Source: a candidate division WOR-3 bacterium
Lineage (GTDB): Bacteria; Hydrothermota; Hydrothermia; LBFQ01; DSFT01
Direction of reading: 5' to 3'
Length of the DNA stretch: 55,507 nt
Assembly (NCBI GenBank): GCA_965649115.1
Contig: CBFGJN010000003.1
Location: 1 to 55,507, forward strand
Shown here: positions 37,424 through 55,507 of the stretch, in pieces
Layout: every line of letters starts with the position of its first letter
Numbering within the stretch: position 1 is the first letter of the stretch
Notes under the pieces: generated by a model
What the model was told of the DNA's origin: nothing
Seen by the model: only the letters and a program-made list of their open reading frames with translations
Database searches by the model: none
Made by a program: the position numbers and the translations under genes

Positions 37424-37627
37424 TGCTGTGTCTAGTAATTCTAAAAACTATTTATTTTACTATATTTTCCCACCCACCCTGAAATTAAGCTTTCAGCTTA
37501 AAAATACCCATTCTTATGCCTTGGGGGGCTTCGCCCCCCATTAAACCCCCGTAAAATCAATAATTCCAATAAAATTTTTATAAGATATTGATTATCAATT
37601 ACTTAACACTATTTATTGGACAAAGCA
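37424..37627 (+). mobile_element. Full-length MITE-like element, copy L (204 bp)
   Basis: TGCTGTGTCTAGTAAT...TTATTGGACAAAGCA; AAGCT-TTC-AGCTT; GGGGGGC-TTC-GCCCCCC. Confidence 0.92.
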
Positions 37628-37635
37628 AGAGTTAG

Positions 37636-37815
37636 TGCTTTGTCTAGTAATTCTAAAATTATGATTATTTCTATCTTTCCCCACCCACCCTAATAATAAG
37701 CCTTCGGCTTGAAAATATCCATATTTCGGCAGAGGGGGCAAAAATCAATAATTTCCTTTAAATTTTTATAAGTTATTGATTGTCAAGCATTTAAAACTAT
37801 TTACTAGACAAAGCA
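37636..37815 (+). mobile_element. MITE-like element, copy M (tandem with L)
   Basis: TGCTTTGTCTAGTAA / TTACTAGACAAAGCA perfect 15-bp TIR; 8 bp from L; L+M flanked by TAATTTTTT direct repeats. Confidence 0.92.
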
Positions 37816-44645: not shown

Positions 44646-45722
44646 TCATAAGTTATTGCAGATTGAAATTAATGTATCAACAATAATTTTACTTGGATAA
44701 AAACGTTTAAATTCTTTTTTTCTTCTAAAATTATAATAATTTTCAAAAAAATAATTTATTTTTTCATCTTTAAATTCAGAAAGAAAAGCAGTTTCATCTA
44801 AACCAACTTCTCTTTCCGTTCTTTCTCTCAATAGTAAACAAGGAACATTTAAATAATAAGTTTCTTCTTGGAGTCCTCCACCATCAGTTATTACAAAAGC
44901 ACTATCTCTAACTAAGTTCATAAAGGTTATGTAATCTAAATAACCCATAATTTCAATGTTTTGATTATTTTTTATAATATCGTAAAGTTTGAACTTTTTT
45001 AATTGAACTTCACTTGGTTTGTGAATTATGTATTTTACTTTTTTTAGTTTTGATGCTCTGATTATAATATCAATACATTTTTTGAATCTTTCTTTATTGT
45101 AAATTGTCTCTTGTCTGTGAATTGCAGATACAATATAATTAGAATTTCTTGGATCATCATCTTTTGGACGCACAAATTCGCAAAGTGTATCATAAACTGT
45201 ATTCTGAAAAGTATTAACAATAATTTTTTTCCCTTCGTACTTTTTTAAATTACTTTTAGCCCAATCAGAAGGCGGGAATAAAATATCTGAAAAATGAACA
45301 GAAATAATTCTAACTAATTCTTCTGGAAATGGATGAAATATATTAAATGACCTTAAACCTGATTCAATATGTGCAACTTTCATGTTAAATAATTTACCTA
45401 TGATTACTGCTAAAAGTGTTGATATTGTATCACCTTGAGTTATCAAAATTTTTTGATTTTTAATTTTGTTTTTATGCTTAAAAGCATTAATGATAACTTT
45501 TAAAATAAAAATTGGAATTTCATATACATTCTTTAAATCCTTTTGTTCGTTTCTTAAATTTAAATCTGGCTTTCTCAATCCAAATTTTTCTTCAAGAACT
45601 CTATTAAATGATGGTTGTTGATCAGTTTGAACATATAGATAATCTATCTTTCTCTTTTCAAGTTCTAACATTACTCCTGCCATTTTAATTAATTGTCCTT
45701 TTGTTCCAATTAAGATAACCAT
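44646..45722 (-). CDS. wecB: UDP-N-acetylglucosamine 2-epimerase family
   Basis: GTKGQLIKM (divergent), QGDT, HIESGLRS, PFPEE, HRQE, TDGGGLQEE. Confidence 0.85.
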   Translation of the reverse strand: MVILIGTKGQLIKMAGVMLELEKRKIDYLYVQTDQQPSFNRVLEEKFGLRKPDLNLRNEQKDLKNVYEIPIFILKVIINAFKHKNKIKNQKILITQGDTISTLLAVIIGKLFNMKVAHIESGLRSFNIFHPFPEELVRIISVHFSDILFPPSDWAKSNLKKYEGKKIIVNTFQNTVYDTLCEFVRPKDDDPRNSNYIVSAIHRQETIYNKERFKKCIDIIIRASKLKKVKYIIHKPSEVQLKKFKLYDIIKNNQNIEIMGYLDYITFMNLVRDSAFVITDGGGLQEETYYLNVPCLLLRERTEREVGLDETAFLSEFKDEKINYFFENYYNFRRKKEFKRFYPSKIIVDTLISICNNL

Positions 45723-45736
45723 AAAATAAATTGAAA

Positions 45737-45742
45737 ATTTTA
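45737..45742 (-). promoter_or_regulatory. -10-like box CTT-TAAAAT
   Basis: 14 nt before ATG 45722; 22 nt from MITE O. Confidence 0.55.
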
Positions 45743-45764
45743 AAGATAAATAAACCTTATAAAT

Positions 45765-45929
45765 TGCTGTGTCTAGTAATTCTGAAATATAGATTATTTC
45801 TTATTTTGCCCGCCCACCCTGAAAATAAGGCTTCGCCCCCCTATAATCCCCCATAAAATCAATAATTTCTTTAAAAATTTTATAAGTTATTGATAATCAA
45901 GGATTTAACAATAATTATTGGACAAAGCA
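45765..45929 (+). mobile_element. MITE-like element, copy O (165 bp) with perfect 9-bp TSD
   Basis: CTTATAAAT|TGCTGTGTCTAGTAAT...ATTATTGGACAAAGCA|CTTATAAAT. Confidence 0.95.
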
Positions 45930-45945
45930 CTTATAAATTTAACTT

Positions 45946-45951
45946 TAAAAT
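45946..45951 (+). promoter_or_regulatory. -10-like box ACTT-TAAAAT
   Basis: 7 nt before radA ATG 45959. Confidence 0.7.
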
Positions 45952-45958
45952 TTCAATA

Positions 45959-47218
45959 ATGTTTATATGTTCAAATTGTGGATATAAATCTTTAAAGTGG
46001 ATAGGAAGATGTCCAAATTGTCAAGAATGGGAAACATTAATAAAAGAAGATGAAATGAAAATTGAAACTAATAATCAAAACGTTGAAATTAAAAAATTAA
46101 AGGATTTAGAATATATTAAGGAAGAGAGACTTATCTCAAATATAAATGAATTTGATAGGGTTGTTGGTGGTGGTATTTTAAAGGGTTCTTTAATTTTAAT
46201 GGGAGGAGACCCTGGTGTTGGAAAATCAACTATTGCTTTACAATTAGCAAGTAGATTTAAATCGTTGTATATTAGTTCAGAAGAATCTTTAAATCAAGTC
46301 TTATCAAGAGCCAAAAGGATTGGAATAAATAATGATAATGTTTATATTGTTTGTGAAAGTAATTTGGATAGAATTTTAAATAATTTAAATGAAAGTTTTG
46401 ATTTAATTGTTATTGATTCAATACAAACGATATATTCAGATGAAATTCCTTCAAGTCCTGGCAGTGTTTCACAAATAAAGACATGTGCTTATAAATTACT
46501 TAAAGTTTCAAAATCAAGTAATACAGCAATTTTAATAATAGCTCACATTACAAAGGAAGGGGAAATATCAGGACCAAAATTATTAGAACATATCGTAGAT
46601 GTAGTTTTATATATGGAAACTAATGAAGCAAATTTAAGAATTTTAAGAAGTTATAAAAATCGTTTTGGACCCACAAATGAAATAGGAATTTTTGAGATGA
46701 CTGAAAAAGGATTAAAAGAAGTCAATAAACCCGAAAATTACTTCATTTCTGATATAAATTATGCTAAACCTTCAATAGCAAGAAGTATAATTTTAGAAGG
46801 ATTAAGACCACTAATTGTTGAAGTTCAAAGTTTAATAGTTAGAACATATTATCCAACACCGATAAGAAATTCAACGGGATATGATATTAGAAGATTAAAT
46901 ATGATTTTAGCTGTAATTGAAAAGTACCTAAATATAAAATTGAGAAATTATGATATTCATGTAAATATCGTTGGAGGAATTAGAGTTTCAGACCAAGCTA
47001 TTGATTTAGCTGTTGCTCTTTCTATAATTTCTGGATATAAGAATTTTCCTTTAAATCCAAAATTAGTTTATATTGGTGAAATAGGTTTGACAGGTGATAT
47101 TCACAAAGTTTTTCTAATGGATTTAAGAAAATCAGAAGCAAAAAGACTTGGTTTTGAAATTTATGAAAACAAAAAAACATTAATTGATACTTACAAGGAT
47201 ATTTTTGAAAATTTTTAG
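45959..47218 (+). CDS. radA: DNA repair protein RadA/Sms
   Basis: CSNCG..GRCPNC zinc finger, GGDPGVGKST, IDSIQT, KNRFG, Lon-like C-terminus; start moved out of the MITE. Confidence 0.96.
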   Translation: MFICSNCGYKSLKWIGRCPNCQEWETLIKEDEMKIETNNQNVEIKKLKDLEYIKEERLISNINEFDRVVGGGILKGSLILMGGDPGVGKSTIALQLASRFKSLYISSEESLNQVLSRAKRIGINNDNVYIVCESNLDRILNNLNESFDLIVIDSIQTIYSDEIPSSPGSVSQIKTCAYKLLKVSKSSNTAILIIAHITKEGEISGPKLLEHIVDVVLYMETNEANLRILRSYKNRFGPTNEIGIFEMTEKGLKEVNKPENYFISDINYAKPSIARSIILEGLRPLIVEVQSLIVRTYYPTPIRNSTGYDIRRLNMILAVIEKYLNIKLRNYDIHVNIVGGIRVSDQAIDLAVALSIISGYKNFPLNPKLVYIGEIGLTGDIHKVFLMDLRKSEAKRLGFEIYENKKTLIDTYKDIFENF

Positions 47219-47812
47219 AAATTCATTTGGCTTTTCAATGTGTGGCATATGACTACATTCATCAATAAAGTAATTTTTACAATTTAAAATTTCACTCGTT
47301 TTCAATAATTTTTCAATATCAACAATTTTATCATTTTTTCCTATTATGTGAAAACATAATATATTTTTTCTTTTGAATGTTTCTAAATACTTAAATGGAT
47401 TAAAATTATTTAGAATTTCAATATGATTTTTTAAAACATCAGAATTCTTAAACATCAAGTAATCTCTTTTTTTACAATCGTCAATAAACTTTTGGGAATA
47501 ATATAATTTTTCGCAAATTTCTTCTTTATCCAAATTTAAATTAAATTTTTCAAAAATAGCACCATTTACTAAAATAAGTGCTTGAATATTATTAAAAATT
47601 GTTGAAAAGTAGTATCCTATTGAACCACCCATAGAATGCCCAATTATTATAATTTTTGAATTGAAATAGTCTTTAAAGTAATCCGCATAATTTTCAATTT
47701 CATTAGCTTTTGGTAAATCAACATTTATTATTTCAAAATTTTTTAATTCTCTTGTAATTAAAAGCCAATTTAAATGCGAACCTCCTGCACCATGAATGAA
47801 AAATAATTTCAT
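47180..47812 (-). CDS. Alpha/beta hydrolase
   Basis: HGAGG, GHSMGG, GKNDKIV, CSHMPH. Confidence 0.85.
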   Translation of the reverse strand: MKLFFIHGAGGSHLNWLLITRELKNFEIINVDLPKANEIENYADYFKDYFNSKIIIIGHSMGGSIGYYFSTIFNNIQALILVNGAIFEKFNLNLDKEEICEKLYYSQKFIDDCKKRDYLMFKNSDVLKNHIEILNNFNPFKYLETFKRKNILCFHIIGKNDKIVDIEKLLKTSEILNCKNYFIDECSHMPHIEKPNEFLKIFKNILVSIN

Positions 47813-47860
47813 TTAATCAGGTAAAGAAAAAATTCCACTCATTAAAATTCCTGACAAACC

Positions 47861-48529
47861 CTAAAGCAAAGAGGCAGAGTATATATAAATAAATTGTTCA
47901 TTTGATAAATAAACGACAAAAAATATATCTGCTAATAAAAAGATAATTCCTGCTATTGAACCAATTATCCATCTTTTTCCAAGATCACTACCCCAAAATA
48001 TCCTCAAATCAATAATAGCAAATGTTGCAAGAATATAACCAAGAATTATTAGTACTAAATGGTAATAAAATTTTTCATCAAATTTGTAATTATTAATGAG
48101 TAATGAATAACCAACTACCAAAAGTAATATAAAAATTCCAAGGACTTGCAAAGCTTCACCAAGTGTAAGGCCATATCCACTTCTCATAAGTTGAATAAAC
48201 ATATAAACAACTGCACTTGCAAATGATAAATGCCCAATATATAGTAATGGATAAACGATGTAGTTTTCAAAATCAAATTGAATTAAGAAGAATCCAATAG
48301 CAAGTAAGAACCCTCCAAGCCCAAGCAGAAATGTTAATTTTCCTCTTGCAGTTTTTATACCAATTGTAATAAATGCCCTTCTCATTGAAACAATAAAGAA
48401 AACTATAAATAGTACTGCTGGAATTGAAAGGGAATAGATTGGACTATAAGGATTAAAGAAAAGGTAATAAATTCCAAGAACAATCCACAAGGTTATATTA
48501 AATAATGTTATAAAGAATGTGAAGTTCAT
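47861..48529 (-). CDS. Hypothetical polytopic membrane protein (about 7 TM), apparently cut by an in-frame TAG
   Basis: Hydrophobic throughout; the frame stays open 15 codons past TAG to TAA 47815-47813, which abuts the next ATG. Confidence 0.6.
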   Translation of the reverse strand: MNFTFFITLFNITLWIVLGIYYLFFNPYSPIYSLSIPAVLFIVFFIVSMRRAFITIGIKTARGKLTFLLGLGGFLLAIGFFLIQFDFENYIVYPLLYIGHLSFASAVVYMFIQLMRSGYGLTLGEALQVLGIFILLLVVGYSLLINNYKFDEKFYYHLVLIILGYILATFAIIDLRIFWGSDLGKRWIIGSIAGIIFLLADIFFVVYLSNEQFIYIYSASLL

Positions 48530-48535
48530 ATTGAA

Positions 48536-48541
48536 ATTTTA
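48536..48541 (-). promoter_or_regulatory. -10-like box ACTT-TAAAAT
   Basis: 6 nt before ATG 48529. Confidence 0.7.
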
Positions 48542-48564
48542 AAGTTTAGAGAATTATTGCAAGG

Positions 48565-48589
48565 ACTTTCAGAATTATTAGACATAGCA
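48565..48589 (-). repeat. Solo MITE left-end fragment
   Basis: Reverse complement TGCTATGTCTAATAATTCTGAAAGT matches the start of copy K. Confidence 0.7.
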
Positions 48590-48605
48590 CACACCATTTA
48601 AAAAT

Positions 48606-48784
48606 TGCTTTGTCTAGTAAATAATATTAAGTTGCTGATTAATTATGAATTTTACGGGGGGACTTTATGGGGGGCAGAGCCCCCCACTGCCGAAAAATGG
48701 GCATTTTAAAGCCGTAGGCTTTAATTTTGGGCGGGTGGGGAAAACATAGAAAAATAAATAGTATCAGAATTATTGGACAAAACA
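48606..48784 (-). mobile_element. MITE-like element, copy P with perfect 9-bp TSD
   Basis: TTTAAAAAT|TGCTTTGTCTAGTAA...TTATTGGACAAAACA|TTTAAAAAT; GGGGGGC-AGA-GCCCCCC; AAAGCC-GTA-GGCTTT. Confidence 0.92.
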
Positions 48785-48799
48785 TTTAAAAATCACCTT

Positions 48800-48805
48800 T
48801 AAACT
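48800..48805 (+). promoter_or_regulatory. -10-like box CCTT-TAAACT
   Basis: 5 nt before TTG 48811 (or 8 nt before TTG 48814). Confidence 0.6.
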
Positions 48806-48810
48806 TTCAA

Positions 48811-49518
48811 TTGTTGATAATTTTCCTTTTATTTGACTTACCAAATGACCCAAAAACATTATATGAAGTTGCATTAAATGAATTTAAAAACAAAAATTAT
48901 AAGCAAGCTGAAAAAATTTTAAAAAGAATTATTTATTCGTTTTCACCTAATGAATGGACTGATAAAGCACAGTTTTATTTAGCACTTTTATATTATGAAA
49001 TAAAAAATTATGAACTTGCAAAGATTGAAGCAGAATTCTTTGTAAATAATTTTAAATATAGTGAATTTTATCCAAATGGTTTAATTTTACTTGCAAAAAT
49101 TTATTATAAATTATCACCAAATCCACATAAAGATATATCTGAACTTAACAAAGCAATTGAAATTTTAAATAGAGTTAAAACATTGTATCCAAGTTATAGT
49201 CAATCAGCTGATAGTATAATGTTCCTAATTAGAAAAAAATTTGCCCAAAAAATTTTAATTTCTGCCAATGTTTATAGAAACATTGAAAAACCAAAATCAG
49301 AAGCAATTTACCTTGAATACTACTTAAATAATTACATTGATATTGAACCTGATTCAGTAGCATATAGACTACTTGAAATATACGAAACTTTAAATGAAAA
49401 AGAAAAAATTATTAATTTAACTGAATTAATTCTCAAAGGTGATAATTTTTCTTCATGGATAAAAAAAGTAGCCCTTGAGAAACGAGATAAATATGGCTAT
49501 CGCTCTGATAGGAGGTAG
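48811..49518 (+). CDS. bamD: Outer membrane protein assembly factor BamD
   Basis: TPR pattern LYEVALNEFKNKNY..DKAQFYLA..FVNNFKYS; KFAQKILISANVY; no lipobox visible. Confidence 0.8.
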   Translation: MLIIFLLFDLPNDPKTLYEVALNEFKNKNYKQAEKILKRIIYSFSPNEWTDKAQFYLALLYYEIKNYELAKIEAEFFVNNFKYSEFYPNGLILLAKIYYKLSPNPHKDISELNKAIEILNRVKTLYPSYSQSADSIMFLIRKKFAQKILISANVYRNIEKPKSEAIYLEYYLNNYIDIEPDSVAYRLLEIYETLNEKEKIINLTELILKGDNFSSWIKKVALEKRDKYGYRSDRR

Positions 49519-55378: not shown

Positions 55379-55405
55379 TGCTTTGTCTGCCTTGTCCAAT
55401 AATTC
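55379..55405 (+). mobile_element. Doubled MITE-type terminus followed by non-MITE sequence
   Basis: TGCTTTGTC immediately followed by TGCCTTGTCCAATAATTC; the next 100 nt do not match the other copies. Confidence 0.65.
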
Positions 55406-55507
55406 CCCCTCTACCTTCCCTATGGATACCCCCACTATATTTTAACTCATCCCCTCCCATATCAACCCCTCAATCAGCCAAATTACTATAACTATAAAAA
55501 CTATTCA

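Follow-up and report, generated by a model that had tools for sequence, protein, structure and literature searches.

The window analyzed here is the whole of contig C3 (55,507 nucleotides; CBFGJN010000003.1) of the metagenome-assembled genome (MAG) of a candidate division WOR-3 bacterium, which comprises 1.85 Mb in 99 contigs at 27.6% G+C and is 94.5% complete. Two of its intergenic spaces hold short repeats, O and P, whose coordinates (Table 1) were read directly from the sequence between 45600 and 49000. O separates the promoter of radA from that of a divergently transcribed UDP-GlcNAc 2-epimerase gene, and P stands between a membrane-protein gene and a BamD/YfiO-like gene. [quoted passage not shown] We consider it very probable that both are MITEs whose terminal inverted repeats are those of a 1,052-bp IS903-type insertion sequence (IS) resident in the same genome, and that its transposase inserted them at sites set by promoters.

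Table 1. Coordinates in the window of elements O and P, of neighbouring promoter motifs and of related elements.
Feature	Position	Strand	Remarks
O 9-bp target-site duplication, left copy	45756-45764		CTTATAAAT
MITE O	45765-45929	+	165 bp; TGCTGTGTC to GGACAAAGCA; A end TGCTGTGTCTAGTAATTC at 45765; B end (reverse complement TGCTTTGTCCAATAATTA) at 45929
O 9-bp target-site duplication, right copy	45930-45938		CTTATAAAT
P 9-bp duplication, left copy	48597-48605		TTTAAAAAT
MITE P	48606-48784	-	179 bp; TGCTTTGTC to GGACAAAACA; B end TGCTTTGTCTAGTAAATA at 48606; A end (reverse complement TGTTTTGTCCAATAATTC) at 48784
P 9-bp duplication, right copy	48785-48793		TTTAAAAAT
Promoter motif of UDP-GlcNAc 2-epimerase gene	45735-45745	-	AAATTTTAAAG, reverse complement of CTTTAAAATTT; gene at 44646-45722, minus strand
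radA promoter motif	45943-45953	+	CTTTAAAATTT
Promoter-like motif of BamD/YfiO-like gene	48797-48807	+	CTTTAAACTTT; TTG start at 48811
Truncated older family copy	48551-48589	-	about 39 bp; outer base of A end at 48589; minus strand reads TGCTATGTCTAATAATTCTGAAAG
IS A end	55388-55507	-	100% identical to the full IS over 120 bases; contig stops inside the element
IS-copy 8-bp duplication	55380-55387		GCTTTGTC; partner copy at right end of contig C6
Two-element dimer	37424-37815	+	37424-37627, 8-nt spacer AGAGTTAG, 37636-37815; outer flanks TAATTTTTT

Both elements are bordered by perfect 9-bp direct repeats, as an earlier reading made from the letters alone (hereafter the sequence-only reading) had noted, and the terminal bases TG...CA that it assigned hold at O and at P. 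Read over a longer span, the termini of O are TGCTGTGTCTAG at one end and TTGGACAAAGCA at the other, and those of P are TGCTTTGTCTAG and TTGGACAAAACA. Alignment of the two shows P inverted, as the reverse complement of the family type to which O belongs. The A end of O (45765) is oriented toward the epimerase promoter and that of P (48784) toward the promoter at 48797. P is also readable with a 10-bp duplication (ATTTAAAAAT), the element then being one base shorter; 9 bp was chosen because this is the rule in the family.

That rule comes from the genome as a whole. The end pattern TGCTKTGTCYAGTAA, with up to two mismatches allowed, has 984 matches in the genome, giving the terminal inverted repeats expected of a MITE family, and plus and minus ends lying 60-600 bp apart form 278 pairs, of which 268 have readable 9-bp flanks and 267 have room for longer ones. 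The 9-bp flanks are identical in 105 of the 268 pairs, with one mismatch in a further 20 and two mismatches in five, against an expectation of 0.8 identical pairs when the right flanks are shuffled. A scan for exact flank repeats over the 267 pairs gave 105 at k=9 and 11 at k=8, with none at k=6, 7 or 10-13, so that the duplication has a fixed length of 9 bp and at times 8 bp. Because the lengths peak at nine with a few at eight, we conclude that the enzyme staggers its cut of the target by 9 bp, with 8 bp in roughly a tenth of cases. The notion that the flanking repeats are chance matches and the elements non-mobile structured repeats of the repetitive extragenic palindrome (REP) or bacterial interspersed mosaic element (BIME) type would gain something from the AT-rich, low-complexity flanks, but with so large an excess of perfect pairs, so sharp a peak at k=9, sites that are empty in relatives and in other samples, and an existing partner IS, its probability is negligible.

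The partner is hidden in the MAG. A Pfam search for DDE_Tnp_1 in the MAG and in same-genus genomes found none, and the domain is absent from the MAG because the interior of the IS is missing from the assembly. Units of 0.4-6 kb bounded by family ends contain only host genes and one 1,426-bp composite, with no transposase within; comparison of all genome ORFs of at least 150 aa with one another by BLAST gave no multi-copy transposase; and an exact DNA pattern scan of metagenome contigs for the IS gave no match. The lead came from G013, a genome of the same order, in which there are 12 matches to the ends, all about 125 bp from contig ends, and one of these precedes an ORF beginning MKEKKEKKRDWKKYNEQLVRRGEI. 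A tblastn search with this peptide against the WOR-3 genome itself matched ten contig ends. Ten of its contigs terminate inside the end TGCTTTGTCCAATAAATAATGTCAAGGGG...ATGGGGAAGGTAAATTGGCAAGAATATAAC (the B end), and sixteen terminate inside TGCCTTGTCCAATAATTCCCCCTCTACC (the A end), 101-127 bp in. One such A end closes the window, with the last 12 codons and stop of the transposase on the minus strand at 55470-55507.

A phmmer search with the 56-aa N-terminus against 1.8 billion representative proteins returned only fragments of 196 aa or less. The working probe was this N-terminus fused to the rest of the relative L049 and scored on residues 1-56 only, the chimera being a search device, and it identified one full-length, intact database protein, P0017, entered at 300 aa; the IS end in the window codes for its C-terminus, LIMNSFYSYSNLAD. 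The contigs that encode P0017 come from five Logan runs and two Joint Genome Institute (JGI) metagenomes, with one identical 1,052-bp element in seven contigs; the Logan contigs of two public hot-spring runs include one of 1,052 bp whose first base falls exactly on 55388. The full IS has a single 300-aa ORF at positions 68-970, and it is matched at 100% identity by all 16 A ends and seven of the ten B ends of the genome studied here. The depth of the IS contig relative to its flank is about 15-25x in X1 and X2 and about 7x in X5. Because the ends are identical and because of the read depth, the IS is placed in this organism: it is resident in the same genome in roughly 10-25 copies, at least 16 of which break contigs. 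Together with about 500 copies of the family these make up at least 4.8% of the 1.85-Mb genome.

At nearly all of the 198 contig ends of the MAG the sequence breaks off within a MITE or the IS, about 95-127 bp in (in the window at 4-127 and 55388-55507), and shared duplications join contigs over IS copies (C3-C6, C16-C38, C22-C1, C33-C83, C39-C20, C43-C93 and C76-C88). The family is thus behind nearly every contig break, and common duplications can scaffold the assembly. In G013, the contig ends (L014-L025) and G013:C69 represent at least six copies of a related IS of much higher G+C with the ends TGCTGTGTCCAATAATAC and TGCTTTGTCCAAAAAGTG; pairing the flanks of these copies gives 8-9-bp duplications, and the genome has no MITEs. 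The G013 contigs C44 and C45 (1,133 bp, DDE_Tnp_1) were considered as the IS interior and rejected as a different element, there being no overlap with the IS ends.

P0017 covers the whole NCBIfam profile NF033579 with 245.5 bits (cut-off 140) and carries PF13737 and PF01609; the IS903B transposase, from an E. coli plasmid, scores 357 bits on the same profile. In a BLASTP alignment of 295 aa (E 6e-33) the two proteins are 27% identical, and their DSTG, DxGYD and E motifs coincide. The catalytic residues of P0017 are D115 (LDSTG), D194 (DAGYD) and E256, and its signature Y249-R252-E256-K263, Y-(2)-R-(3)-E-(6)-K, is aligned with that of IS903B. The 1,057-bp IS903B has the repeats GGCTTTGTTGAATAAATC, to which the B end TGCTTTGTCCAATAAATA of the new IS is identical at 14 of 18 positions, with TG as terminal dinucleotide versus GG. 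With a homologous DDE transposase, the DDE residues and signature, a length of about 1 kb with one ORF, a 9-bp duplication and related 18-bp repeats, the partner is by its sequence a new member of the IS903 group in the IS5 family.

The sequence-only reading had predicted a DDE transposase making 9-bp staggered cuts, which is what has been found, and the screen that it proposed for a transposase with matching ends has led to the partner IS. Its list of candidate families (IS256, ISLre2, ISKra4, IS4 and IS1) finds no support, as the partner is of the IS903 type and no element of those families with matching ends was found. Since all five also give 8-9-bp duplications, by general knowledge, and the MAG is incomplete, a transposase from one of them could be hidden and move the MITEs. 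We consider this very improbable: there is no multi-copy transposase ORF in the genome, no 0.6-5-kb unit bounded by family ends contains a transposase, and P0017 scores 48 bits on the IS4 model, below its cut-off of 115, with no match at E 1e-5 to the models for IS1, IS256, ISLre2 and ISKra4. The ends, duplication length and target choice that the MITEs have are, moreover, those of the IS903-type element.

Relatives found through the N-terminal motif come mostly from archaea, with some from Aquificaceae MAGs, are 1,010-1,057 bp long and have ends of the form TGCTKTGT. They include L047/L049 (1,018 bp), L060 in a Nitrososphaeraceae MAG (1,010 bp) and an element on the Sulfolobus islandicus plasmid pYN01 (1,057 bp), with transposases that are 35-40% identical; their duplications are 9 bp where flanks are readable (TCTTGTATT in L060, CACACGACC on pYN01), and it is in the sub-terminal sequences that they differ. 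That the nearest full-length relatives are mostly archaeal suggests transfer between domains in hot environments. The archaeal relatives are found in Asgard archaea, Thermoproteota and Nitrososphaerales, with about 25 copies in Methanoperedenaceae GB37 (LR991653.1, L066-L089).

The IS and the MITEs agree in their ends, in their duplications and in their targets. Over the terminal 18 bases, the B end of O is identical to the IS at 17 positions and P at 16 at each end, and the likeness extends about 26 nt at the B end and 18 nt at the A end. Seven IS copies can be paired over contig ends through reverse-complementary flanks, giving duplications of 9 bp in six cases and 8 bp in one, the latter being the window copy with C6. 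The autonomous partner expected of a MITE family is therefore present in the same genome with the same ends, duplication length and target choice, and because these three are common to IS and MITEs, the MITEs are probably mobilized in trans by the IS transposase. We envisage that the single 300-aa DDE transposase encoded by the IS would bind ends of about 18-26 bp (TGCYKTGTCYARTAA...) of either the IS or a MITE and would join their 3' CA ends to the target with a 9-bp offset (8 bp for about 10% of events), with repair of the gaps giving the flanking direct repeats. The duplicated 9 bp would not be recognized; the host promoter motif CTTTAAAATTT would set the insertion point, such that the duplication usually begins 10 nt upstream of the motif and the end of the element comes to lie 19 nt from it, always with the same A end toward the promoter. 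Repeated insertion at the same 9 bp would give rise to tandem arrays.

The evidence for a target outside the duplication begins with the target logo that the sequence-only reading had asked for, built from 105 reconstructed empty sites oriented by element. The 9-mer is nearly without preference (0.03-0.2 bit per position). The duplications of O and P resemble the promoter motif, and the sequence-only reading had allowed that this 7/9 likeness might be fortuitous; duplications matching CTTTAAAAT at seven or more of nine positions number three of 105, O and P being two of the three, against 2.4 +/- 1.5 in shuffles, and because this is the shuffled level we take the likeness to be chance. The strong signal is AAATTTTAAAG, the reverse complement of the promoter motif, on the A-end side of the duplication; copies with a perfect duplication of 8 or 9 bp number 116, and 76 of these have it. 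Its distance from the duplication at these 76 sites is 10 nt in 48, 9 nt in seven and 11 nt in three, and a minor class of 18 has 1-4 nt; the reverse-complement motif on the B side is found in none of the 116 copies. O has the canonical spacing, with 10 nt (45746-45755) between the epimerase promoter motif and its duplication, and P falls in the minor class, with 3 nt between its duplication and the motif at 48797. The older fragment at 48551-48589 lies at the canonical 19 nt from this same motif once P is removed. Counted from the promoters, 674 motifs are followed by an ATG 2-11 nt on; an element end lies 18-20 nt upstream of 156 of them and at 10-13 nt in 54.

Insertions also lie beside or inside older copies of the family. 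At 53 sites the A end of an older copy stands directly after the duplication, and neighbouring copies can have a 9-mer in common, as with AAATTTTTG, present three times at C5:47713-48240; tandem arrays with common 9-mers are what one would expect if the copy of the duplication nearer the promoter is hit again and again. The target of the IS copy at 55388 is the terminal repeat of an older MITE starting at 55379. An apparent YA at positions -2/-1 was rejected as a target signal, since it derives from neighbouring element ends. The published target of IS903 is a palindromic motif, WTTYA-N9-TRAAW, that flanks the duplication (PMC2577343, table 1); a TRAAW half-site was not found in the 10 nt between the promoter motif and the duplication, where information reaches at most 0.45 bit per position.

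A fixed distance could also result from selection, if insertion were random and only copies at harmless positions were kept. The genome is compact, the spacers between divergent promoters can be tiny (23 nt at the O site and 0 nt in the same-genus genomes G003 and G004), and an insertion nearer the motif would destroy the promoter. Positions farther upstream should be equally harmless, yet the distances above fall away sharply from 10 nt, with a count of only one beyond 11 nt, and the orientation is absolute, with the motif never found in reverse complement on the B side. The IS copies, which are identical and hence very young, have the canonical spacing in 11 of 16 A-end flanks, and the same spacing recurs at two of the three sites (C25 and C24, not C29) that the IS occupies only in other samples and that are empty here. 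Away from element ends, the 88 kb of neutral DNA that the family itself supplies is seldom hit. We therefore think selection an unlikely source of the spacing and favour targeting, given a peak this sharp, an orientation without exception and IS copies this young.

As to how it would be measured, we lean toward the view that the minimal, single-protein IS903-type transposase, alone or via a promoter-bound host protein such as the RNA polymerase holoenzyme, reads the 11-bp motif and integrates so that the duplication begins exactly 10 bp upstream, in one orientation. If this is true, an insertion sequence as simple as this bacterial DDE element, together with its MITEs, would home to promoters by a measured distance and not by the sequence that is duplicated. 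The motif is also found within the elements: with no more than one mismatch to CTTTAAAATTT, a promoter-like motif directed outward lies 40-59 nt from the B end in 57 of 219 full-size MITE copies (at about 45868-45880 in O), none of the 219 has one pointing out of the A end, and the IS itself carries the motif, placed much alike at about 50-60 nt inside its B end, as the promoter of its own transposase (TTTAAAATTTTGGAATG). Its presence inside the IS B end and in a quarter of the MITEs is a hint that element and target might be connected by a single factor binding the motif.

The family is currently active, since the IS copies are identical to one another and insertions differ between samples: the IS is found in other samples at C25:23238, C24:19602 and C29:16230, sites that are empty in this genome. 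In the JGI contig L138 (3300000865) the A end of the IS is joined to 39 nt identical to 45764-45726 of the window, which is the O duplication and its flank, followed by Illumina adapter. The full IS has thus used O's exact target in another hot-spring sample.

Several observations weigh against the proposed origin of O and P. The interior of the IS is missing from the assembly of this genome and was recovered from contigs of other samples; of the 18 bases at the A end, O has only 14 in common with the IS; and the interior of the MITEs is unrelated to that of the IS, so they are not simple deletion derivatives. G002, of the same genus, has about 280 family ends and no detectable IS body, and either the IS was lost there after the MITE burst or it is unbinned. 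Intact copies that lack 9-bp repeats are only narrowly in the minority, with unrelated flanks at about 45% of end pairs, for which recombination between copies, truncation and mispairing are guesses; mean divergence is higher in these pairs (nearest-neighbour identity 85.9% versus 91.7%), and slow decay is a poorer fit to the bimodal distribution of flank mismatches than rearrangement or mispairing. Finally, no other copy is close to O or P, the nearest being 92.7% identical to O and 78% identical to P, so that these two insertions need not be young.

The last of these points, with a median identity of only 91.7% even among copies with perfect duplications and the MITEs of G002 without a detectable IS, could mean that the IS is active while O, P and most other MITEs are old immobile relics whose perfect duplications reflect slow decay and not recent movement. 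To this we give little credence. From the ratio of 105 perfect to 20 single-mismatch and five double-mismatch duplications, the change since insertion comes to about 1% per site; for 13 copies there is a partner at least 99% identical, and one dimer is present at two loci. P, though 22% diverged, has an intact pair of duplications (18 nt in all), which argues for divergence before insertion and suggests that diverse source copies existed before P inserted. Gene order in this region is conserved in one congener only, G002, where the flanking genes are 90% identical and O, P and the old fragment at 48551-48589 are all absent, with a single CTAAAAAT at the P site. The inference of recent transposition in the sequence-only reading thus stands for the family, with its identical IS copies and its differences between samples, and for O and P it holds in a weaker form, their insertion being recent only in that it followed the split from G002.

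The dimer in the window (Table 1) recurs at C1:59266-59683 (spacer AGAGTTAGT; inner spacer AGAGTTAG(T)) with a different outer duplication. In all, seven two-element dimers have perfect outer 9-bp duplications, additional to the pairs counted above, around an unrelated inner spacer of 8-9 nt. Because the same dimer stands at two loci with different outer duplications, such dimers move as units: they transpose as composites through their outer ends only, and the inner spacer is a fossil duplication.

IS903 and IS903B of enterobacteria are alike to the new IS in their transposase of about 300 aa on NF033579 (alignable over its full length), in size (1,057 bp for IS903B versus 1,052 bp), in their repeats and in the 9-bp duplication. 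They differ in ending with GG...CC and not TG...CA, in the palindromic target preference, which is not seen here and in place of which there is a promoter motif 10 nt away in fixed orientation, and in their enterobacterial hosts, the present IS belonging to a hot-spring bacterium of another phylum with its nearest relatives mostly archaeal. The closest published analogue of the MITEs is MITEAba12 of Acinetobacter, a short non-coding element of 113 bp with 16-bp repeats, 9-bp duplications and a co-resident parent of the IS5 family, ISAba12, with one DDE transposase; the terminal repeats are imperfect and 16-18 bp in the two systems, but MITEAba12 is present in one or two copies per genome and no promoter-distance rule is reported for it (PMC6382973).

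The family is thus of a known kind, a MITE family with 9-bp duplications and an IS903-type partner, the latter a new member of its group in a little-studied hot-spring phylum. What goes beyond the routine is its scale in copy number and a target rule that departs from the palindromic preference of IS903. The yeast retrotransposons Ty3 and Tf1 insert at a fixed point upstream of where transcription starts, by means of retroviral-type integrases that are tethered by host transcription factors in these eukaryotes. The likeness to the present elements is in one respect, that the insertion point is measured from the promoter and not from the duplicated bases; the enzymes are unrelated, the hosts are eukaryotes, and here there is no known tethering factor.

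Some further features of the region and of the family may be mentioned. No Rfam family matches in the window. A mechanically called radA ORF (45890-47218) begins at an upstream TTG that lies within MITE O; conservation with relatives starts at the earliest at 45959 (in G002) and a few bases upstream in others, and the true start is likely the ATG at 45959. This lies 5 nt after the promoter motif, which fits a nearly leaderless mRNA.

At C11:31359-32784 there is the 1,426-bp composite bounded by family ends, with a perfect duplication TATATCTTT. On its minus strand are two ORFs, one of 246 aa that includes a D..E.K-like stretch and one of 66 aa; neither has a Pfam family match, and they may be cargo mobilized by MITE ends. 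A similar 267-aa protein adjoins family ends on C58 and C26.

Upstream of radA in the same-genus genomes G003 (L131) and G004 (L130), the divergent promoters abut directly and form the palindrome GAAAATTTTAAAGCTTTAAAATTTC, and in G002 an additional small gene of about 480 bp lies between the promoter and radA.

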